Assembly (NCBI RefSeq): GCF_018336915.1
Contig: NZ_CP064923.1
Span: 5,490,001-5,522,000, forward strand
Length of the DNA: 32,000 nucleotides
Source: Acaryochloris marina S15
GTDB taxonomy: Bacteria > Cyanobacteriota > Cyanobacteriia > Thermosynechococcales > Thermosynechococcaceae
Direction of reading: 5' to 3'
This document shows, piece by piece, positions 3,362 through 25,689 of this stretch (within the stretch, counting starts at the first letter, position 1; every line of letters begins with the position of its first letter). Position numbers and translations under genes: made by a program. The notes below the pieces were generated by a model. It did no database searches. It saw only the letters and a program-made list of their open reading frames with translations, and was not told the origin of the DNA.

Positions 3362-3510
3362 GTCAGTTAATTCATACCTGTTAAGACTTGTGCTTTCTAA
3401 GGTTCATTTTTTTGTATCCACCAATACAACAATCAACCGATAGACTTGATATTTCTTGTATACATACTCTATTCATCAAAAAACAATAATTCCTTAAAAA
3501 ATACTTGTTT

Positions 3511-3636
3511 CTAGGGTTCCGATTTGAGTTCCGTCCTTACTTAAATGCCTGGTCCAAGAGAAACAGCTAGCTGCTTTCATACCTGTTTTATACCGGTTGG
3601 CAGTGAGTGACACGGAGGGATAAAAGCCCGGGAGAA
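3511..3636 (+). promoter_or_regulatory. guanidine-I riboswitch aptamer (ykkC-yxkD motif, subtype 1)
   Basis: The three conserved ykkC blocks are present in the right order and spacing: CTAGGGTTCCG (3511-3521), GGTCCAAGAG (3551-3560) and ACACGGAGGGATAAAAGCCCGGGAGA (3610-3635). It sits in the 5' leader of the operon that starts at 3787. Confidence 0.9.
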
Positions 3637-3688
3637 TGAACATTAACGCCGTATCCGTTAATGGTTGTCTCCGCGGGTTTTGTGTTTT
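3626..3688 (+). terminator. riboswitch expression platform: intrinsic terminator overlapping the aptamer 3' strand
   Basis: GCCCGGGAGA (3626-3635) pairs with TCTCCGCGGG (3668-3677), with one bulged G. The inner stem is ATTAACG (3642-3648) / CGTTAAT (3656-3662). The U-rich tract TTTTGTGTTTT (3678-3688) follows. Confidence 0.7.
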
Positions 3689-3786
3689 AAATGGACAGGG
3701 CTCATCTTCCTCTAAAATGACGAAGGAGAAACAACATCAATAAAGAAATTAGCTTGACGAAGTAAAAAACACATTTTCTCGATATT

Positions 3787-4983
3787 ATGGCTGAAAATCC
3801 GACCTTTGGTCCTCCAAACTCTAATCCTGATTTTTCTTCCACCGAGGCCAATCGTGCCTTAGAAAAAGAAGCACAACTCCCCCTCACAGGCTGGCAACAA
3901 GAAGTCGATCGAGGATTAGAACTGGGCTTAGAAGCAGCAGCTAGCATCCGGGATCGCAGCATTCCTACCTTCTCACGAGGAGAACTGCCCCACTATGCAG
4001 GTATCAACACCTTTCTCAAAGCGCCTTACCTAGAAGATGTGCGTAAAGTCGGTGAGTACGATATTGCTGTTGTGGGCGTTCCCCATGACTCAGGCACCAC
4101 CTATCGTCCCGGCACACGCTTCGGTCCTCAGGGCATTCGTCGGATTTCAGCCCTCTATACCCCCTACAATTTCGAGATGGGCATCGATTTGCGGGAGCAG
4201 ATTACCCTCTGTGACGTGGGCGATATCTTCACTATCCCCGCCAACAACGAAAAATCCTTTGACCAAATCTCTAAAGGAATAGCCCATATCTTCAGTTCTG
4301 GGGCTTTTCCCATTATTTTAGGAGGTGATCACTCCATTGGATTCCCCACCGTTCGCGGCGTCTGCCGCCATTTGGGAGATAAGAAAGTCGGTATCATCCA
4401 CTTCGATCGCCATGTGGATACCCAAGAAACCGACCTAGATGAGCGCATGCATACCTGTCCTTGGTTTCATGCCACCAACATGGATAACGCTCCCGCTAAA
4501 AACCTGGTACAGCTAGGCATCGGTGGTTGGCAAGTGCCTCGCCAAGGGGTCAAGGTCTGCCGAGAGCGAGCCACTAATATCTTGACCGTCACTGACATTA
4601 CCGAAATGGGTCTAGATGCTGCCGTTGACTTCGCCCTAGAAAGAGCCTTGGACGGCACAGACTGTGTGTATATCAGTTTCGACATTGACTGTATTGATGC
4701 CGGATTTGTCCCCGGTACCGGCTGGCCAGAACCCGGTGGTCTCATGCCCCGAGAAGCGCTCTATATGCTCGGTAAAATCATTCGACAAGCGCCCGTCTGT
4801 GGCCTGGAAATTGTCGAAGTTTCGCCCCCCTATGACGTCAGCGATATGACCTCTCTGATGGCCACGCGGGTGATCTGCGATACCATGGCCCATCTGGTTC
4901 TCTCTGGACAACTGCCCCGTCAGCAAACACCCGACTATATTCACCCTGAAGCCAATATGGCAGTGGGTTCTGAGTGGGTTTAG
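3787..4983 (+). CDS. gdmH: arginase/agmatinase-family ureohydrolase; probable Ni-dependent guanidine hydrolase (GdmH/Sll1077-like). Pipelines would usually call it agmatinase SpeB.
   Basis: 398 aa. All arginase-fold metal-ligand motifs are present: ILGGDHSIGFP, IIHFDRHVDTQ and YISFDIDCIDAGFVPGTGWPEPGG. It is the first gene after a guanidine-I riboswitch and is followed directly by HypA/HypB-like genes. Confidence 0.85.
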   Translation: MAENPTFGPPNSNPDFSSTEANRALEKEAQLPLTGWQQEVDRGLELGLEAAASIRDRSIPTFSRGELPHYAGINTFLKAPYLEDVRKVGEYDIAVVGVPHDSGTTYRPGTRFGPQGIRRISALYTPYNFEMGIDLREQITLCDVGDIFTIPANNEKSFDQISKGIAHIFSSGAFPIILGGDHSIGFPTVRGVCRHLGDKKVGIIHFDRHVDTQETDLDERMHTCPWFHATNMDNAPAKNLVQLGIGGWQVPRQGVKVCRERATNILTVTDITEMGLDAAVDFALERALDGTDCVYISFDIDCIDAGFVPGTGWPEPGGLMPREALYMLGKIIRQAPVCGLEIVEVSPPYDVSDMTSLMATRVICDTMAHLVLSGQLPRQQTPDYIHPEANMAVGSEWV

Positions 4984-4986
4984 GCC

Positions 4987-5367
4987 ATGCATGAAACAGA
5001 CATGACCAAGGCCCTGATCATGACGGTCAAAGATTGGTACGACTCCCAACCCGAAGATCCAAAAATCACCAAAATTCATTTGGTTGTCGGTCGGTTTACC
5101 TGTGTTGAACCCGTCAGCTTGCAGTTCGCCTATGAAGTTCAAACCCGTGACACTTTCTTAGCCGGGACAGAACTGGTGATTCGAGAAACGCCTTTAATCG
5201 CCTTTTGTCACCCCTGCCAAAAAGAATATTCCCCAGCCATCGGCTTGCAGTATTCCTGTCCTGACTGTGGAACGCCGATGGAAGACATCCGGTCCGGTCG
5301 CGAACTCAAAATTGACCATATCGAATATTGTTCTGATTCAGCCCAAGCTTATGCACCAAACTGTTGA
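4987..5367 (+). CDS. hypA: HypA-like nickel metallochaperone (GhaA-type accessory protein)
   Basis: 126 aa. Has the N-terminal MHE nickel-binding motif and two CxxC pairs (CHPCQ, CPDCG) forming the zinc site. The ATG is 3 nt after the upstream stop codon. Confidence 0.85.
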
Positions 5368-6049
5368 CGCCGCCCTAGGCATTAACCTCTTACATGCCAA
5401 TCAAGAAGGGGCCAATCACAACCAAGCACATTTTGATGAATGGGGGGTGACCTGTTTCAACATTATGAGCAGCCCTGGTGCAGGAAAAACGGTGCTGTTG
5501 GAGAAAACCCTAGCGGCTCTCAGCCCAGAACTCAAACTGGCCGTCATCGAAGGCGACATGACCACCGAATTGGATGCCGATCGATTACGGGCTTACGATG
5601 TCCCCGTGGTGGCCATTAACACCGGGCGATCCTGTCACCTTGACGCCAAGATGGTCGCGGGTGGCATCCACCAATTGGAGCATTGCACTAATCCTAGTGA
5701 ACTGGATTTAGTGCTGGTAGAGAATGTCGGGAACCTCGTATGTCCGGCAGAGTTTGAAGTAGGAGAGCATGCCAAAGTGGCCCTACTCAGCGTGACAGAG
5801 GGGGAAGATAAGCCGCTGAAATATCCCGTGATGTTTCAAGCAGCCGATTGTTTATTGGTGACCAAGATAGATTTAGTTCCCTATCTCAATATTGACATTG
5901 AGCAAATCAGCCAGAATGTCCGTCAGCTCAATCCCCATGCCACGATTATTCCGGTATCTGCACAAACAGGAGCAGGGCTTGCTGAATGGTATGAATGGGT
6001 GCGTCAACAGGTCGCCCAGCCGAGTCGGACTGCAGTCGGTCGTCATTAG
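5351..6049 (+). CDS. hypB: HypB-like nickel-dependent GTPase (GhaB-type accessory protein)
   Basis: P-loop SSPGAGKT, metal/switch motifs GRSCHLDA and [12 protein letters not shown], and specificity motif TKIDL. I place the start at ATG 5351 ([10 protein letters not shown]...), which overlaps hypA by 17 nt. The track start at 5267 would add 28 residues read out of frame across hypA. Confidence 0.85.
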
Positions 6050-6076
6050 TTGTTTGTAAGCAGGTAAAAGACTTCT

Positions 6077-7105
6077 ATGAAGCGAAGAAATTTTCTATCC
6101 TTATGTTTGGTATTTTTCTGCAGTTTGCTGCTGACCGTCAGCTGTAGCTCCTCACCCGAGACGACAACCGACTCTTCTGTCGGCTCAGGGGAGCCAGTTG
6201 TGATTGGTTACAGTAACTGGGCGGGTTGGTGGCCTTGGGCCATTGCCGAGCAAGAAGGGCTATTTGAAAAAAATAAGGCCAATATCAAACTCAAATGGTT
6301 TGATAATTACACCACTTCAATGGAAGCCCTGGCAGCGGGTCAATTAGACGGCAATTGCCAAACCCTCAACGATACGATTTCCTTTGCCGGCAGTGCCACC
6401 AAGGGAGAAGTCGCGGTCCTAGTCAATGACAACTCTGCTGGTAATGACAAGATTATCGTTACGGCCGATATTAATAGTATTCAAGACTTGAAAGGTAAGA
6501 AAGTTGCCGTTGAAGAAGGAGTAGTGGACGACTTTTTGTTGACCTTAGCCTTGGAAGAAAACGGCATGAAGCGAGACGATGTGGAGATCGTGGGCTTGGA
6601 AACGGGTAAGGCCGTGACTGCTTTTGTGGCAGGTAAAGTGGATGCAGTCGGGGCATTTCCCCCGTTCTGGGCAACAGCGTTAAAGCGGGAAGGCAGTAAA
6701 GAGCTGATCTCGTCCAAAGAGTTTCCGGGTGCCATTCCAGACTTGCTCGTGGTGACCCAAGATTTAGTGGATAATCGCCCCGATCAAGTGCAGGCCCTGG
6801 TAGATACTTGGTTTGATATCTTAGCCTTCATAGATAAAAATCCCCAAAAGGCTGATGAAATTATGGCGAAGCGGGCCGGGGTCTCTCTGGAAGAGATGAA
6901 GCAATTCAAAGAAGGAACGCGCTTCTTCTCCCTAGAAGATAATCTGGAAGCATTTTCGGATGGTGAAGACATGAAGCATATGCCCTTTGCTGCCAAACGG
7001 ATGGCTAAGTTTATGGTGGATGTCGAATTCATTAAAGAAGCACCGGATTTAACCCAAGTGCTGGATGACCAGTTTGTTAAGGCCTATCAAGCCAAGCAAG
7101 CATAG
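6077..7105 (+). CDS. ABC transporter substrate-binding protein, NitT/TauT (NMT1/SsuA-like) family, probable lipoprotein
   Basis: 342 aa. Signal peptide ends in LLLTVSC-SS (lipobox-like Cys). The overall pattern (IGYSNWAGWWPW..., KGKKVAV..G) is typical of nitrate/sulfonate/taurine-type binding proteins. Confidence 0.8.
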   Translation: MKRRNFLSLCLVFFCSLLLTVSCSSSPETTTDSSVGSGEPVVIGYSNWAGWWPWAIAEQEGLFEKNKANIKLKWFDNYTTSMEALAAGQLDGNCQTLNDTISFAGSATKGEVAVLVNDNSAGNDKIIVTADINSIQDLKGKKVAVEEGVVDDFLLTLALEENGMKRDDVEIVGLETGKAVTAFVAGKVDAVGAFPPFWATALKREGSKELISSKEFPGAIPDLLVVTQDLVDNRPDQVQALVDTWFDILAFIDKNPQKADEIMAKRAGVSLEEMKQFKEGTRFFSLEDNLEAFSDGEDMKHMPFAAKRMAKFMVDVEFIKEAPDLTQVLDDQFVKAYQAKQA

Positions 7106-7173
7106 TTCCCTTCTATTCCTGGAGCTAGTTCGCTCCAGGAATACCAGATTAGTCATGTGTCTCTGCAGCGATT

Positions 7174-8019
7174 ATGACCTCCAACTCGTCAGTTCCCCCA
7201 CCCCAACCGAACCATCAGTCTGGTGGATTAAAACCCACTATTTTTTGGCGTATTGCTGAGGACATTCCAGGGAATCTCAAGTGGGCCTTAATGGTGACTT
7301 CCATCGTTCTTCCCTTCGGACTTTGGTGGGGAATCGCTAGCACTGGAGTCGTTAATTCCGACTTCTTGCCATCTCCTACCCAAGTGGGTCAAGCCTTACG
7401 CGATCTCTACTCTGATGGCTTGCTCGTCCATGATACGTTGATGAGCTGCTTTAGGGTTGGGGTAGGTTTTCTACTCGCTGCAATTGTTTCTGCGCCTGTT
7501 GGCATAGCGATGGGGACATTTACCAGTATTCGGTCCTTATTGGAACCGATTATGGGCATTGTTCGTTATATGCCAGCGCCCGCCTTTACGCCCCTGTTAC
7601 TGATCTATTTAGGGGTAGATGAACGACCCAAAATCGCCCTCATTTTTATCGGTACGGTGTTTTTCAACATCTTGATGGTGATGGATGCCGTCAAGTTTAT
7701 TCCCAAGGAATTGCTGGAAACAACTTATACCCTAGGGGGAAGACGTCACCAAGTGCTCTTCCAGGTGATTACTCCCTATGTGATTCCCAATATTCTGGAT
7801 GCCTTTCGTGTCAATATGGCAGCCTCTTGGAATTTAGTCGTGGTTGCTGAATTAATTGCTGCAGAAGAAGGCTTAGGGAAACGCATTGCCATAGCTGAAC
7901 AGTTTTTCAGGACTGATACTATTTTTGCCTGCCTCATTGTGTTGGGACTGATTGGGTTTGGTCTAGATTTATTATTCCGCTGGCTACAACGTGCTGTCTC
8001 TCCCTGGGCAATCGACTAA
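7174..8019 (+). CDS. ABC transporter permease, NitT/TauT family
   Basis: 281 aa and multi-pass hydrophobic. The EAA-like loop region (AEEGLGKRIAIAEQFF) is typical of BPD_transp_1 permeases. Confidence 0.85.
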   Translation: MTSNSSVPPPQPNHQSGGLKPTIFWRIAEDIPGNLKWALMVTSIVLPFGLWWGIASTGVVNSDFLPSPTQVGQALRDLYSDGLLVHDTLMSCFRVGVGFLLAAIVSAPVGIAMGTFTSIRSLLEPIMGIVRYMPAPAFTPLLLIYLGVDERPKIALIFIGTVFFNILMVMDAVKFIPKELLETTYTLGGRRHQVLFQVITPYVIPNILDAFRVNMAASWNLVVVAELIAAEEGLGKRIAIAEQFFRTDTIFACLIVLGLIGFGLDLLFRWLQRAVSPWAID

Positions 8020-8028
8020 CTCATCACT

Positions 8029-8805
8029 ATGCACTTAGAAGTTTCCCATCTGTATAAGCATTTCTCGACTCGCCAGGGGAAACTGCTCGTTCTCAAAGAT
8101 ATTAATCTGCACGTGGAGACGGGAGAGTTTGTCTGTGCTGTAGGGGCATCAGGATCTGGCAAAACCACACTTCTACGTATGATAGCGGGGCTAGACGCCT
8201 CTACCTCAGGCAAAATCATGGTCGATGGTCAGCCCGTGATTGGTCCGGGTGCCGATCGCGGCATGGTGTTTCAAAGTTACACCCTCTATCCCTGGTTGAC
8301 AGTTGCCAAAAATGTGGGATTTGGCTTAAAACTGCAGGGGGTTGCTAAGCCCCTGCGCGCTAAGCGGGTGGCTGAATATCTAGATGTGGTGGGATTGACC
8401 CAGTTTGCCGATGCTTATCCCAGAGAGTTGTCAGGGGGGATGAAGCAGCGAGTTGCCATTGCCCGAGCATTGGCCTCACAACCCAAAGTATTACTGATGG
8501 ATGAGCCGTTCGGAGCATTGGATGTGCAAACGAAAGAAACCATGCAGCAGTTTTTGCTGAATTTATGGCGACGAACCGGCACCAGCATCTTAATGATTAC
8601 CCATGACGTAGACGAAGCTATTTTCCTGTCACAGCGCATTTACGTGCTCACGGCTCGCCCTGGTTCGGTCCAGCGAGAGATCTCGATTAACCTACCGACG
8701 GAACGGACTTACGCCGTCAAACGTCAGCCCTTATTTCAAGACTATCGAGATGAAATCATGGATCTGTTGCGGGAAACCCCAGAACTCCATCCAGTGATAG
8801 AGTAA
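8029..8805 (+). CDS. ABC transporter ATP-binding protein, NitT/TauT family
   Basis: Walker A GASGSGKTT, signature LSGGMKQR, Walker B LLMDEPF, H-loop ITHD. The ATG is 9 nt after the permease stop. Confidence 0.9.
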   Translation: MHLEVSHLYKHFSTRQGKLLVLKDINLHVETGEFVCAVGASGSGKTTLLRMIAGLDASTSGKIMVDGQPVIGPGADRGMVFQSYTLYPWLTVAKNVGFGLKLQGVAKPLRAKRVAEYLDVVGLTQFADAYPRELSGGMKQRVAIARALASQPKVLLMDEPFGALDVQTKETMQQFLLNLWRRTGTSILMITHDVDEAIFLSQRIYVLTARPGSVQREISINLPTERTYAVKRQPLFQDYRDEIMDLLRETPELHPVIE

Positions 8806-20190: not shown

Positions 20191-21729
20191 TCAATCATTA
20201 TGGGCATGATCAAATTCATAGACATAAAACATGCGGCTAAAGCGCTGGAGTAAATAGCCCCCTGTCGCTAACACCACACTGCAAAGCGCTAACTCCCAAA
20301 ACTCAGGCGGGGGAGTCATTAAGAATAAAGAAGTATCAGAATGAGTGATGGCGTATAGGGCTTGCGATCGCGCATCCAGCATCACCCCCAATCCAAAACA
20401 AACCACTGCGCTAATCAACATCACGATTTTCAGCTGTTGAATCCGTTTCAAGGCTTGGCGGCAAACTTGGCAATCTTTAGTGTGGGTGTGCCAAACATCA
20501 AAGAGCTGTTCTTTATCTCGCTGAGGGGGAGGGAGCTGGGGGTCACATTGCCAGGGAATCCCTCCGCCTGCTCGGGTTTTGATCCACTGCCGCAGGGCAA
20601 TCACCATTTTGTCTTGGGGATTAGGGGTATAGACCGTCTCTAGCCAATTTCCCTGCTCCTGATGCCCAATTCGTTTTTCCTGATAGTGGAGAAACACTAA
20701 ATCTTGATGGAGGAATAGGGGGGCCAATACATGGCCTAACCATTTCGGCATCGGCCAAGCAAAAAAGCCCAACCCAGGGGGCGCTTTCCCATCCTTATCT
20801 TTAATCAAGACTTGGCAGCCAATGTGGCGACACCAACCGGGACGAGTGGGACTGGCATAGAGTGCCAAAATCATTTGCCCCTCTCTCGCAAAAGTGGTTT
20901 CAATCCGCATATGACAAGGAGGCTGAAAATTGTGGACTGCCTTTCTTAAAATCGTATTGGAGACGGGTGTGATGTTAAAGGCAAAGCCTTCTTGAGTCGA
21001 GACTTCTCGCACCGCACTCATATCGTAATAATTGGCATCCCGATAGCGATTACCCATAATGCCGTGATGGGAGACAGGGACATGGGCCGGGTCCGCAATA
21101 TTTTCCATAAAAAAGTCCCAGCCATAGGGCAAGTCTCGCACATACCAAAACAGCTTAATGGCCCGATCGGGCAACTCTTCTAGCTCCGGGATAATCCGAG
21201 GAGAACGCTCCTGGCTGAGGGACTGGGAGGCCTCACTATTATCTGGCCACACCCAAATTAAACCCTGCTGAACTTGGGTCGGATAGGCGATGGCACACGA
21301 TCGCGGATTGGCTCGATGCTGTTTAGCCGTCTCTAAATCCAGACTTTGAGGAATATCTAAGCAGTGGCCCTCACCATCAAATCGCCAGGCATGATACGCA
21401 CACATCAAAGTGCCATCTACTTCGATCCGTCCTTCGGATAGCGGTGCAAGGCGATGAGGACAGCGATCTTCAAAACAATGCCATTCTCCCTGCTGATCAT
21501 GCCAAATCACCAGATCTTTTCCCAATAGCTGAATGGCATGAGGGCTTTTCGGATCCAAAAACTCAACCACTGCCACTGGATACCATTGCTGTGTCCATTG
21601 AAATTGTTCAGGTGTAGCGGTTTCAGCTTCTGCAACGGAGGGGGCGGTCTCTACCTGCTGAGATGAATCGTGGGTGGGATCAAGGGACAAGCGGTTTTGA
21701 GTCGTCACTGTCTTAACAATTGCGCTCAC
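20191..21729 (-). CDS. Rieske [2Fe-2S] non-heme iron oxygenase, pheophorbide a oxygenase (PAO/Tic55/LLS1)-like
   Basis: Rieske motif CPHRLAPLSEG ... CAYHAWRF, mononuclear iron region DPAHVPVSHHG, C-terminal CxxC (KDCQVCRQA) and two terminal TM helices, as in PAO-family proteins. GTG start. Confidence 0.85.
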   Translation of the reverse strand: MSAIVKTVTTQNRLSLDPTHDSSQQVETAPSVAEAETATPEQFQWTQQWYPVAVVEFLDPKSPHAIQLLGKDLVIWHDQQGEWHCFEDRCPHRLAPLSEGRIEVDGTLMCAYHAWRFDGEGHCLDIPQSLDLETAKQHRANPRSCAIAYPTQVQQGLIWVWPDNSEASQSLSQERSPRIIPELEELPDRAIKLFWYVRDLPYGWDFFMENIADPAHVPVSHHGIMGNRYRDANYYDMSAVREVSTQEGFAFNITPVSNTILRKAVHNFQPPCHMRIETTFAREGQMILALYASPTRPGWCRHIGCQVLIKDKDGKAPPGLGFFAWPMPKWLGHVLAPLFLHQDLVFLHYQEKRIGHQEQGNWLETVYTPNPQDKMVIALRQWIKTRAGGGIPWQCDPQLPPPQRDKEQLFDVWHTHTKDCQVCRQALKRIQQLKIVMLISAVVCFGLGVMLDARSQALYAITHSDTSLFLMTPPPEFWELALCSVVLATGGYLLQRFSRMFYVYEFDHAHND

Positions 21730-22021
21730 AGCTAGGGTTTATCCTCCCCAATATAATCCTCAACGTTCAACGGGTTAATCGATTCACACCTAGCTCACCA
21801 ACCCACCCATGCCTTTTGGCCCTGTCCCTCATCTGGATTAAAATCGAGGAACCGCTTACCTCGCTTCACCATCAGTAAACCCAGAAGGATGGGAATGAAG
21901 GGCCTAGGTTTGACAAATGGCCAAAGAATGCGAATCATAATCCCCAGAAGCTTTGACAAGTATCCGAGGAATACTGAGCTCGATTTGTCTCCGGCTTGTT
22001 TAGCTGACCTCCGTCAGCCCC

Positions 22022-23460
22022 GCTTTTGACCGCTTCGTTCCACTCACAGTCAAAAGCAGAATATAAGGAGCGTGACCGCAGGAAACATATTCTAGGGAGT
22101 AAAGCTACATTCCCTAAATTTGTTAAAATCAACTTATGCTCGTAATGAACTACCGATACAGGATCTACCCAAATTTTGAGCAAGAACAGCAAATGCTGAG
22201 CTGGCTTGAGACGTGCCGCAGGGTTTTTAACTATGCCCTGCGAGAACGTAAAGACTGGATAAATTCTCGGAAGTGTCCAGCAGATCGATGCTCTTTGCAG
22301 TCCGAATATATCGTTGCGGCTGATGCCCCTTACCCTAGCTATTACGCTCAGAAAAAAGGATTGGCAGTCGCAAAGAAAGAGAATAACTGGCTTAAAGCTG
22401 TCCATTCTCAAGTATTGCAAGAGGTCATTGGACAACTGGATGGGGCATTTACATCTATGAAGGAAAGAGGTCATGGCTTCCCACGCTTTAAGAAGTTTGG
22501 GCAGTATCGATCCTTTCTCTTTCCTCAATTCAAGAGCAGCCCCATCCAAGGTAGACAAATTAAGCTGCCCAAAATTGGGCTGATGCCCATTGTCTTCCAT
22601 CGGCAAATACCAGATGGTTTTGCGATTAAGACAGTGCGAGTCATTCGTAAGCATTCTGGGTGGTATATCTCCCTGTGCTTGGTGGCAGATGTGTCTATCC
22701 CAGAGGTGCCGCCTCACGGTCGGTCCATAGGTATAAACGTAGGGCTGAGCTATTTCCTGAGTACCAGTGATGGCGAACAGGTTGATAGACCTCGCTTTTT
22801 CGACAAACTTCACCGCAAGCTGGAATTGCTGCAACGATGTTTGAAGCGGAAGCAAAAACGGTCTAATAATCGTGCCAAGCTGATTCAGAGAATAGGGCGA
22901 GTCCATGAACAAATTGCGGCATCTCGGCTGGACTGGCAATTTAAGCTGGCTCATCACTTGTGTGACCAAGCTCAGATGATCTTTGCTGAGGATTTGGACT
23001 TCCGAATCATGGCAAAAGGCTTGTTGGGCAAACATACTCTTGATGCAGGGCTTGGGCAATTCCTGAATGTGGTTTTGCCTTGGGTTTGCTTCAAGCGTGG
23101 AGTTTACTATGCCAAGGTTGACCCTAATGGTACGTCTCAAGAATGCCCTGACTGTGGAGCCAGGGTAAAGAAAGACCTAAGTACGAGGATTCATGAGTGT
23201 CATGAGTGTGGGTCTGTAAAGCCTAGAGATGTTGCCAGTGGTCAAGTTATCAATGCCCGTGGTCTATCGGGTATTCAAACTGCAAGTGGACGGGATCTAT
23301 CGGGGTATCAGGAGACTGATGCTAGACAAGACCGAACGAAGCTTGAAGAACTCAAGAGTAATCTTGAGAAGCCCGCGCTCTATGCGTCAGCATGAGCGTC
23401 GGGAGAAGTCACACTCGCTTATTCTCTATTTCGTTGTCCACCCTCAACCTAAAGTGACTC
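22022..23460 (+). mobile_element. IS200/IS605-family (IS1341-like) element carrying tnpB only; ends not defined
   Basis: tnpB ORF with no tnpA nearby. A subterminal hairpin GCTTTTGAC (22022-22030) / GTCAAAAGC (22049-22057) lies ~80 nt upstream of the ATG. The structured 3' region extends to the next gene. Boundaries are approximate. Confidence 0.6.
22136..23395 (+). CDS. tnpB: IS200/IS605-family transposase accessory protein TnpB (RNA-guided nuclease family), RuvC-I Asp replaced by Asn
   Basis: 419 aa. Typical N-terminus YRYRIYPNFEQEQQMLSWLETCRRVFNYAL, RuvC-II IFAEDL, zinc ribbon CPDCG...CHECG and RuvC-III PRDVASGQVI. The RuvC-I motif reads GINVGL (AAC at 22736-22738) where GIDxG is expected. 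Confidence 0.85.
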   Translation: MLVMNYRYRIYPNFEQEQQMLSWLETCRRVFNYALRERKDWINSRKCPADRCSLQSEYIVAADAPYPSYYAQKKGLAVAKKENNWLKAVHSQVLQEVIGQLDGAFTSMKERGHGFPRFKKFGQYRSFLFPQFKSSPIQGRQIKLPKIGLMPIVFHRQIPDGFAIKTVRVIRKHSGWYISLCLVADVSIPEVPPHGRSIGINVGLSYFLSTSDGEQVDRPRFFDKLHRKLELLQRCLKRKQKRSNNRAKLIQRIGRVHEQIAASRLDWQFKLAHHLCDQAQMIFAEDLDFRIMAKGLLGKHTLDAGLGQFLNVVLPWVCFKRGVYYAKVDPNGTSQECPDCGARVKKDLSTRIHECHECGSVKPRDVASGQVINARGLSGIQTASGRDLSGYQETDARQDRTKLEELKSNLEKPALYASA

Positions 23461-24270
23461 ATGACCGTCTCTGAGAACCGCCCTAACTTGCCGCCCTCAT
23501 CCCGGGTTCTGACCTTGGTGGGTCTGATTCTAATCTTGACCTTCTTTCTAGATTTTTTGGTCCGCTTGACTTCGCCCCAGTTAGGCAATGCAGAAGTCCA
23601 ACTGACCCTACTCAATGACTTAATCGATCGCGGAGTGATTCCACTGATCGGTTTATCCCTGATTTATGCAGGCTTCTGGTTTCATTTATATACCAAGCCA
23701 CCCCTCGTTGCTGACACTCAAGACGACAAAGAACTGAGGGCTGCTTGGCAAGACCCCAAGTTCTGGACCTTTGTCTTTGCCAGTCTCCTAGGGCTGATGT
23801 TTCTGCTGATTATTCCGTTTCACTATGCCAAAACGGGAGATGTGATTCAGAAGGCCCTCGATCAAGTTGACGCCGAATGGACTCGTAACAAAACCACCAT
23901 TGATCAGCAGCTCAATCAGGTCAAGTTAGAAGAGCAACAATGGCAAGCCATCGGTAAAGACCCCACTCAGCTTGATCAACTCCTGAATAATCCCCAGATG
24001 CCGCCCCAGCAGAAGGCCGCCCTCACCCAGCTCAAGAAAGACCCCCAGGTGCTGAAACAAAATGTGGATGCCCGTGTCAAGCAGCTCCAACAACAGCAAA
24101 CCCAAGTCGCAGGACAGTTGGCCGATGCTGAAAAACGTAAAGCTGATGTGATCAAGCGGGCTGAAGGAGAACGCTCCATGACCCGTCTCCGAGCAGGGAT
24201 TCGGGGTATCTTACTTGCGATCGCATTTGCCAGTATCGGCTGGACCGGCCTCCGGGACTCTTCCAACTAG
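23461..24270 (+). CDS. hypothetical membrane protein with Q-rich coiled-coil segment
   Basis: 269 aa. It has four hydrophobic segments and a central low-complexity/coiled region (QQWQAIGKDPTQLDQLLNNPQMPPQQKAALTQLKKDPQ...QQQQTQVAGQ). Confidence 0.7.
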   Translation: MTVSENRPNLPPSSRVLTLVGLILILTFFLDFLVRLTSPQLGNAEVQLTLLNDLIDRGVIPLIGLSLIYAGFWFHLYTKPPLVADTQDDKELRAAWQDPKFWTFVFASLLGLMFLLIIPFHYAKTGDVIQKALDQVDAEWTRNKTTIDQQLNQVKLEEQQWQAIGKDPTQLDQLLNNPQMPPQQKAALTQLKKDPQVLKQNVDARVKQLQQQQTQVAGQLADAEKRKADVIKRAEGERSMTRLRAGIRGILLAIAFASIGWTGLRDSSN

Positions 24271-24339: not shown

Positions 24340-25689
24340 ATGACCTTGCAGGCTCCCCTTGCCCAACTGATCGAGATTCTGTCCGCAGAGCCCCTTCATA
24401 TCTCTAGTGCTTTAACCTCCCAGCAGGTTCAAGGCGTTAATACCGATACCCGCAGCCTAAAATCTAATGAAATTTTTCTCGCCTTCTCGGGAGAGAACTT
24501 TGATGGTCATCGGTTTGCAGAATCAGCAGTACAGCAGGGGGCCATCGCAGCCATTGTCGATCACCCCATTGACGCAGCCATTCCTCAATTAGTGGTTCCA
24601 GATACCCTCGTGGCCTATCAGCGCCTGGGCCAGTGGTGGCGGCAGCAGTTTCAAATCCCAATCATTGCCATCACGGGGTCTGTCGGCAAAACCACCACCA
24701 AAGAGCTGATTTCCGCTGTCCTCGGCACAGCTGGATCCGTCCTGAAAACAGAAGCCAACTACAACAATGAAATTGGCGTTCCCAAAACCCTGTTAGGGTT
24801 AACGCCCAATCATGACTATGCCGTTGTGGAAATGGGCATGCGAGGACCCGGAGAAATCGCAGAACTGTCTCAAATTGCCCAACCCACCATTGGTGTCATT
24901 ACCAACGTCGGCACCGCTCATATCGGTCGTTTAGGGTCTAGAGAAGCGATTGCTAACGCTAAATGTGAGCTATTGGCCCAGATGCCCTCAGATAGTCTCG
25001 CGGTTCTCAACGCCGATAATTCCTTGCTGATTGAAACCGCCCAAACCGTTTGGTCGGGAGCTCAAGTCACCTATGGCCTTGGATCTGGCGATTTACAAGG
25101 ACAGCTAGAGACTCAAACCCTACAGGTAGCGGGCCATTCCTTCCCATTGCCCCTACCGGGGGCTCATAATGCGTTGAACTATTTAGCAGCCCTGGCCATC
25201 GCCCAGCATCTCAACCTTGACCTAACGCCCCTACAGCGAGGTATATCGCTGGAACTCCCCTCCGGTCGCGCTCGCAAACTCACCCTGCCCAATGATGTGG
25301 TGGTTTTAGATGAAACCTATAATGCTGGCCTGGAATCGATGCAGGCAGCCCTCCATTTACTTGCCCAAACACCGGGTGAGCGGCGCATTGCCGTCTTGGG
25401 ACCCATGAAGGAATTAGGGGACTATGCCGCCGAACTCCATCGGCAGGTAGGTCGCCTAGTACAAGAACTGAATATCGATCAGCTCTTGATTTTAGATGAA
25501 GGCTCTGAAGGGACCGCCTTAGCCGCAGGAGCCACTACTATCCCCACTCAGCAGTTTGCCGAGCATCAAGCCTTAATAGACTATCTCGATCAACATATTC
25601 AGTCGGGCGATCGCCTGCTGTGCAAAGCCTCTCACTCCGTTGGGCTAGACCGAATTGTTGACCATCTCACCCAAAGCCTAGTCCGTTAG
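24340..25689 (+). CDS. murF: UDP-N-acetylmuramoyl-tripeptide--D-alanyl-D-alanine ligase
   Basis: 449 aa. Mur ligase P-loop [22 protein letters not shown] and DETYNA motifs. Architecture typical of MurF. Confidence 0.9.

Follow-up and report, generated by a model that had tools for sequence, protein, structure and literature searches.

An asparagine allele at the first RuvC catalytic position of a resident solo-tnpB element in Acaryochloris marina

What becomes of a TnpB nuclease that has lost its first catalytic residue? The question is raised by a locus of Acaryochloris marina S15, which we analysed within a window of 32,000 nucleotides (contig NZ_CP064923.1, positions 5,490,001 to 5,522,000). 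Coordinates are those of the window and features are on the forward strand unless stated otherwise. The locus carries a solo tnpB gene (22136–23395). Codon 201 is AAC (22736–22738) and encodes asparagine, in the motif G-I-N-V-G-L, at the position of the RuvC-I catalytic aspartate. The initial annotation saw either a very recent inactivation of a fresh insertion sequence (IS) copy or a cleavage-dead RNA-guided protein. Most likely, the solo-tnpB element is selfish and immobilised, and Asn201 is a loss-of-nuclease allele segregating among its copies.

The tnpB open reading frame (ORF) has 419 uninterrupted codons, with an alternative start at Met4 (22145), and its product is QUY42410.1 in the A. 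marina S15 GenBank entry. This protein scored 250.8 bits against the NCBIfam guided_TnpB profile NF040570 (cutoff 100) and matched Pfam HTH_OrfB_IS605, OrfB_IS605 and Cas12f1-like_TNB (PF12323, PF01385 and PF07282; all above cutoffs). The architecture is a helix-turn-helix domain, a RuvC domain and a zinc ribbon. An AlphaFold2 model of moderate quality (mean predicted local distance difference test score 66) best matched the ISFba1 and ISDra2 TnpB structures. The top Foldseek matches were 8iaz, 8h1j, 8exa and 8bf8 (probability 1.00; template modelling scores normalised to the target 0.55–0.69). An antisense ORF of 401 codons (21935–23140, reverse strand) contains a stop codon in the Moss Beach strain (locus L001) and in SRR17348480 (L006). 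We rejected it as spurious and not a conserved gene.

Alignment to ISDra2 TnpB (8bf8/8h1j) using phmmer placed N201 on D191, E285 on E278 and D365 on D361. Both this and the homologue alignment identify the intact RuvC-II glutamate (codon 285, GAG, 22988–22990) and RuvC-III aspartate (codon 365, GAT, 23228–23230). The zinc ribbon CPDC...CHEC (23144–23209) is also intact and its cysteines are invariant in alignment A2. The triad of the S15 protein is N201-E285-D365 in place of D-E-D. The ORF, profiles and alignment bear out the initial description of a full-length, uninterrupted solo TnpB with AAC at the RuvC-I position and RuvC-II, zinc ribbon and RuvC-III preserved. That description allowed that the motif might be misaligned and a nearby aspartate catalytic. 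The aspartate in STSDGEQ pairs with a non-catalytic 'TDG' of ISDra2, and the ISDra2 alignment together with family conservation rules this out.

Aspartate occupied the RuvC-I column in 119 of 121 sequences (the query and its 120 closest homologues). Apart from the query, the sole asparagine belonged to the Moss Beach orthologue. Full-length representatives of 50%-identity clusters read D-E-D in 100 of 101 cases. These counts, 219 aspartates in 222 aligned sequences with the query counted in the first set, exclude a subfamily that naturally carries asparagine, which the initial annotation had entertained. Asn201 was present in independent assemblies (S15, SRR12447961, Moss Beach CP071717 and SRR17348481) and hence is not a sequencing error. 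Asn201 is therefore a true departure from a near-invariant residue. The S15 protein is a TnpB by descent that lacks the feature defining the activity.

We defined the element by aligning occupied sites (S15 and L002) with empty sites (L089, L091 and L092, and also L097). The empty-site junction reads ...GGCTTGTTTAG|ACTCGCTTATTC... (ACTCGC...). The whole insertion is a 1409-bp solo-tnpB element (22004–23412) of the IS200/IS605 type, IS1341-like, which lies 3' of TTTAG with zero duplicated bases. Uninterrupted PaO-hpsJ intergenic regions were found in MBIC11017-type strains and MBIC10699 (L089–L091), in CCMEE 5410-type strains (L092–L094) and in a third lineage, SRR12447953. The TTTAG (21999–22003) directly 5' of the left end is the transposon-adjacent motif (TAM). 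The same position reads TTTAG in L007, GTTAG in L008 and CTTAA in a truncated metagenome paralogue (L113), a consensus of four elements only. Defined ends, insertion 3' of a short motif and absence of target duplication are as expected for IS200/IS605 insertion sequences. The truncated paralogue (L113 5866–6617, on ENA ORXM01000022, a 295-kb marine metagenome contig; also L114) comprises the left end and the first ~617 nt of tnpB, at 93% nucleotide identity and with the aspartate retained. It follows CTTAA in an unrelated context and is cut off directly after GIDVGLSY. Hence, the element has been mobile elsewhere and its left boundary is independently confirmed.

The left end (22004–22135) contains a conserved hairpin (22003–22018) and a palindrome with arms at 22022–22030 and 22049–22057. 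Relative to the family consensus, this palindrome was remodelled by a ~24-bp inversion and correction of one arm (22031–22060). The downstream arm was converted, and the remodelled arms, GCTTTTGAC ... GTCAAAAGC, form a perfect complement. The ancestral form occurs in L002, L003, L004, L007, L008 and L113, including NIES-2412, SRR17348478 and SRR17348479. The derived form occurs in S15, L001, L005, L006, L098 and L101 (Moss Beach, SRR17348481, SRR17348480, SRR12447966 and SRR12447961). The change resembles a quasi-palindrome template-switch mutation and may affect transposase recognition or the tnpB 5' leader.

TnpB is encoded by the only ORF between the element ends. No Y1 transposase or tnpA was detected within 6 kb on either side of the syntenic Moss Beach locus, nor was tnpA among ten window ORFs scanned with Pfam, in agreement with the initial annotation. 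Across 80 family loci, no flanking ORF was conserved, Y1 transposase included. Hence, this is a non-autonomous, IS1341-like form.

How old is the insertion? In the S15 lineage, 12 of 12 sampled assemblies (nine from Logan, plus S15, Moss Beach and NIES-2412) had the element at the identical site. S15 has been described as closely related to other strains of the Pacific West Coast (PMC8949462). Flanking sequences differ by up to about 8–11% among element-bearing genomes and by 8–15% between element-bearing and empty-site lineages. Because the same site is occupied across genomes with such diverged flanks, the insertion dates to the stem of the S15 lineage, before its diversification, and is old and fixed. 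At a threshold of at least 90% protein identity, the element is single-copy in both S15 and Moss Beach. The closest relatives outside the lineage (81–84%) have three different settings: a phage-like contig, a second unrelated context and the MBIC11017 plasmid pREB2. Hence, the family is mobile and the S15-lineage copy is resident. A search of PLSDB plasmids returned only the 80%-identical pREB2 paralogue of MBIC11017. A scan of GTDB representatives found no copy of at least 90% identity; the lineage representative may lack the element or not be indexed.

The flanks and the element differ in depth. Among element-bearing strains, synonymous divergence is 0.28 for the PaO-type gene (20191–21729), a Rieske oxygenase, 0.26 for murF (24340–25689) and 0.05 for tnpB. 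Some strain pairs have left flanks ~9–11% different and tnpB only 0.4–0.8% different. Either recombination brought divergent alleles into the flanks or the element coalesces later than its surroundings. Later coalescence would fit spread by homing or recombination.

The Asn allele segregates within this lineage. Allele counts were taken over nine complete orthologous copies. Asn201 is carried by three distinct strains in four assemblies: S15 (and the identical SRR12447961 assembly), Moss Beach and SRR17348481. Asp201 is carried by five strains: NIES-2412, SRR17348478, SRR17348479, SRR17348480 and SRR12447966. The initial annotation asked whether the asparagine is fixed or private to this copy; with three strains against five, it is neither. 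Orthologous codon 201 is GAC in L003, L004, L006 and L098 and GAT in L002. Hence, Asn201 is a derived G-to-A change at 22736, the single-base substitution originally proposed. Every Asn carrier also has Arg at codon 252 (22889–22891), which is Lys in every Asp201 allele and in the family consensus. All Asn carriers have the derived left end and are nested within a group that includes two Asp strains. Hence, the left-end change is older, or at least more widespread, than Asn201.

Recombination has shuffled these alleles. S15 and its nearest Asp allele (L006) differ at five sites and share 22474T and 22507T, while Moss Beach and SRR17348481 (L001 and L005) share 22361C and 23184T. Asn201 and Arg252, by contrast, unite S15, L001 and L005. 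Right-flank haplotypes also differ among the three Asn carriers. Hence, either the allele or its surroundings moved between backgrounds.

The guide RNA scaffold is intact. The omega-RNA (23256–23412, coordinates approximate, ~157 nt) overlaps the 3' end of tnpB, and its last nucleotides (...GGGAGAAGTCAC) are also those of the element's right end. Compensatory changes supported 24 of the 47 base pairs predicted from 25 aligned family members, and the S15 sequence folds with z = -3.0. The stretch is near-identical in nucleotides, third codon positions included, to relatives of 81–84% protein identity. No Rfam family covers it; the sole match in the window at the gathering threshold was a guanidine-I riboswitch elsewhere. 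Moss Beach has a G-to-A change at 23401, an omega-RNA position at which 25 of 25 family members agree. This change would disrupt a C-G pair in the terminal stem and is the sole sign of secondary decay in any Asn carrier. In L095, L096 and L102 (SRR17348487, SRR17348486 and SRR12447967), contigs end inside the element, 29–84 nt before the right end, so the element or omega-RNA region may be repeated or heterogeneous there. L095 and L096 also have two C-to-T changes in the last omega-RNA stem, by which G-C pairs become G-U pairs.

The guide-equivalent flank, ACTCGCTTATTCTCTATTTC (23413–23432, guide length assumed), is the target that adjoins TTTAG in empty-site strains. This cognate target, TTTAG with 21 identical bases, persists in sister lineages. 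At the locus itself, the genomic guide match is preceded by GTCAC, from the right end, and not by TTTAG. Hence, the locus cannot target itself. No second match, whether to the guide with its TAM or to the guide by itself, was present in the 32-kb window at up to three mismatches.

The insertion splits the 5' leader of an hpsJ-family gene (23461–24270; Pfam PF28006), which is co-oriented with tnpB and has its ATG 48 nt past the right end. Upstream of the insertion point, in the PaO/hpsJ intergenic region, a consensus scan found a promoter-like TTGACA-17-AATCAT (21910–21938; 10 of 12 matches). The site is also conserved in empty-site strains and is probably the native hpsJ promoter, now also reading into tnpB. 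No terminator-like site was found between tnpB and hpsJ. Hence, the element sits inside the hpsJ leader in the same orientation, and these predictions suggest that tnpB and hpsJ are co-transcribed. S15, Moss Beach and SRR17348481 share an identical hpsJ protein, which differs by one residue from that of the Asp carriers L002, L003 and L006.

Taken as a segregating loss-of-nuclease allele, Asn201 would have arisen as follows. A canonical solo-tnpB element inserted 3' of TTTAG, in the hpsJ 5' leader, in the ancestor of the S15 lineage. Its transcription probably starts at the host hpsJ promoter. Once translated, TnpB would bind omega-RNA derived from the last ~157 nt, with the flank ACTCGCTTATTC... 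as guide. The Asp201 ribonucleoprotein should cut the TTTAG-ACTCGC... empty sites present in sister lineages. Cutting of an empty site would lead to restoration of the element by recombination, the classical mode of TnpB retention and homing, and the Asp form lacks none of the parts required for it. The G-to-A change in S15, Moss Beach and one further strain replaced the first metal-binding carboxylate with an amide.

What should the change do? Mutation of any D-E-D residue abolishes TnpB nuclease activity (10.1101/2023.11.30.569447). Processing of omega-RNA likewise requires an intact RuvC site; an AmaTnpB RuvC-II catalytic mutant fails on its own mRNA (PMC10278001). Given both results, Asn201 TnpB is expected to fold and to bind RNA, and perhaps DNA, with no or very poor DNA cleavage and no processing of its own transcript. 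Since the site is fixed, tnpA is absent in cis and the left end is remodelled, the nuclease would have little left to do, and its loss may have been selectively neutral. Isolated catalytic substitutions occur in other family copies (D-V-D in L028 and S-E-D in L034), as does truncation (L113). Hence, point inactivation is normal attrition in this family. L028 and L034 come from a single metagenome-assembled genome (MAG), MFD03250.bin.1.159, the source of 13 returned loci. Several copies in that genome have a 38-nt match to the right-end terminal stem ~75–110 nt upstream of the tnpB start.

Several observations weigh against simple decay. None of the nine complete orthologous copies is disrupted or contains an indel. 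The mean pairwise ratio of non-synonymous to synonymous divergence (dN/dS) for tnpB is ~0.14, within the range of ten neighbouring housekeeping genes (0.014–0.28). Variable sites among Asn carriers are 11 synonymous and 3 non-synonymous, against a neutral expectation of ~71–78% non-synonymous (P ~1e-5 to 2e-4). Variants private to Asn carriers number 6 synonymous and 2 non-synonymous (P ~0.002–0.01). Asp carriers have 30 synonymous and 11 non-synonymous sites, a ratio not different from that of the Asn carriers (Fisher P = 1). All these counts are small and confounded by recombination in tnpB, and many variants may stem from Asp backgrounds. The Asn allele has also persisted long enough to acquire different flanking haplotypes. 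Together, the counts fit continued selection on the protein and speak against long neutral decay. The dN/dS comparison proposed by the initial annotation therefore detected no relaxation relative to Asp carriers, with recombination as a confounder. Because tnpB haplotypes are incongruent, there is no clean dN/dS test of the branch after the Asp-to-Asn change.

Could the dead protein have been put to use? Under this explanation, N201 TnpB is a selected, RNA-guided binder resembling TldR or dCas12 that acts on a TAM-flanked partial match. It would be a dead TnpB maintained by selection for its binding to omega-RNA or DNA and not for cutting, and its domestication would have only just begun. It might control the tnpB-omegaRNA-hpsJ co-transcript or a partial-match site, the two alleles being a functional polymorphism. 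Because of the purifying-selection signal, we leave a small chance of such a nuclease-independent role. All Asn carriers retain an intact ORF, zinc ribbon and omega-RNA, and synonymous changes exceed non-synonymous ones among them. The allele has an intermediate frequency, is found on several haplotypes and is linked to a second substitution, K252R. There is also precedent, since dead TnpBs have been exapted (10.1101/2023.11.30.569447), and members of a cyanobacterial clade (P0225, P0369–P0373; see below) lack two or all three triad residues. However, only one triad residue is changed at our locus and the change is polymorphic and unfixed. Both canonical ends are kept, and the guide is the insertion flank, as for any IS. 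The guide match is preceded by GTCAC and has no counterpart in the window at up to three mismatches. Adjacency to hpsJ is not conserved among relatives, and the Moss Beach omega-RNA is altered at an invariant base. Nothing shows a new function for the dead allele, exaptation is not supported, and we regard it as unlikely.

Another possibility is that Asn201 is a hypomorph, which keeps some metal binding and acts as a slow nuclease or nickase, so that retention and purifying selection continue. The selection signal in Asn carriers would then be explained, and asparagine is the most conservative replacement for aspartate. Atypical RuvC arrangements can still cleave (PMC10278001; 10.1101/2023.11.30.569447), but the published flexibility concerns relocated RuvC-II or RuvC-III residues and not a RuvC-I amide. 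At our locus, no alternative acidic residue was gained, K252R being the sole linked change, and the family-wide preference for aspartate given above also argues against tolerance of asparagine. In E. coli RuvC and in retroviral integrases, Asp-to-Asn substitution of the corresponding carboxylate abolishes cleavage but not binding. We therefore hold residual nuclease activity to be improbable.

A role in cis was also weighed. If tnpB, omega-RNA and hpsJ form one transcript, TnpB binding and RuvC-dependent processing could set expression of hpsJ and possibly murF. In that case, asparagine would alter processing, with the protein kept for RNA binding. The insertion is co-oriented and 48 nt ahead of the hpsJ ATG, with a promoter-like site upstream and no terminator-like site before hpsJ. 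The AmaTnpB RuvC-II mutant left its mRNA unprocessed (PMC10278001), and every genome of the lineage retains the element. However, promoter and read-through are consensus-level predictions, and retention is equally explained by a lack of excision machinery. No sequence link connects allele and hpsJ, which is identical in the three Asn strains. We judge this explanation, including its account of the allele, quite improbable. The weakest explanation, the originally proposed private GAC-to-AAC hit in a fresh, recently transposed copy, accords with a single transition in an otherwise intact gene but is already refuted, and is highly improbable, given a single-copy element at one site in 12 assemblies with flanks up to about 8–11% different and an Asn allele common to three distinct strains on recombined backgrounds.

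The riboswitch mentioned above lies far from the element. It spans 3500–3636 (71.4 bits), upstream of several genes, namely an arginase-family gene (3787–4983), a CobW/HypB-type GTPase (5267–6049) and an NMT1-type ABC transporter (6077–8805). We take the arrangement at 3500–8805 to resemble the Ni-dependent guanidine hydrolase operon of cyanobacteria.

If Asn201 is indeed a segregating loss-of-nuclease allele, its direct importance is slight; it adds one more decaying, though well-documented, solo TnpB. Its ends are known exactly, as are its TAM, target, omega-RNA and empty alleles, and active and dead alleles are only 2–3 residues apart. Together with the alleles of SRR17348480 and SRR12447966, the S15 allele provides a natural pair for probing how the RuvC-I Asp-to-Asn change affects cleavage, omega-RNA processing and DNA binding. 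Were the Asn allele under selection, it would represent the earliest stage on the path toward TldRs and nuclease-inactive Cas12 proteins, one not previously observed within a single population.

How does the S15 protein compare with known systems? In concept, it resembles Cas12k, Cas12m and Cas12c, which are RNA-guided binders that do not cleave target DNA. Those proteins are fixed, CRISPR-associated and equipped with partner machinery or defined targets, unlike the S15 TnpB, for which none of this was seen.

TldRs and the S15 protein share TnpB ancestry, a guide-RNA scaffold that has been preserved and a RuvC change that inactivates, or in S15 should inactivate, the nuclease. By definition, TldRs retain fewer than two of the conserved triad residues, a state that is stable across clades. 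Often they have also lost C-terminal sequence, gained new gene associations away from transposon ends and acquired guides matching a host promoter (10.1101/2023.11.30.569447). In contrast, S15 TnpB has one changed residue, its ends are intact and its guide is the flank. The asparagine is polymorphic, occurring in 3 distinct strains (4 assemblies) while other orthologues have aspartate, and the hpsJ adjacency is confined to one insertion. Judged by sequence, S15 TnpB falls outside the published definition of a TldR.

A clade found outside the window is closer to that definition. It consists of full-length TnpB-like proteins P0225 (382 aa) and P0369–P0373 (427–428 aa), one of which is annotated 'MAG: transposase [Geitlerinemataceae cyanobacterium]'. 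P0369–P0373 are 57–66% identical to P0225, which is 42% identical to S15 TnpB (BLASTP). In 6 of 6 members the RuvC-I aspartate is His or Tyr and the RuvC-II glutamate is Pro, Arg, Gln or Gly. RuvC-III is changed to Gln or Glu in 5 of 6, P0370 keeping the aspartate. N-terminal and wedge (WED) regions are highly conserved, and the next relatives (up to 50% identity) read D-E-D. A metagenome scan for the context of this clade returned only ordinary relatives at up to 52% identity. We regard P0225 and P0369–P0373 as a candidate TldR-like clade in cyanobacteria.

Like IS1341/IS891/IS1136-type elements, which are common in cyanobacteria, the S15 element has a lone tnpB ORF between short structured ends. 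Family members are scattered over many cyanobacterial genomes and a phage-like contig, and one homologue is annotated at source as 'transposase IS891/IS1136/IS1341 family'. The S15 copy differs from elements of this type in its catalytic substitution and remodelled left-end palindrome.

Finally, we compared the locus with ISDra2. Unlike ISDra2, the S15 element has asparagine at RuvC-I, no tnpA partner and TTTAG as its TAM (TTGAT in ISDra2), and it is fixed, vertically inherited and not recently mobile. The shared features are those of IS200/IS605 TnpB systems. Domain order, fold and zinc ribbon are the same, and triad positions correspond one to one. In both, the TAM lies 5' of the left end with no target duplication, the omega-RNA shares sequence with the 3' end of tnpB, and the flank past the right end provides the guide.

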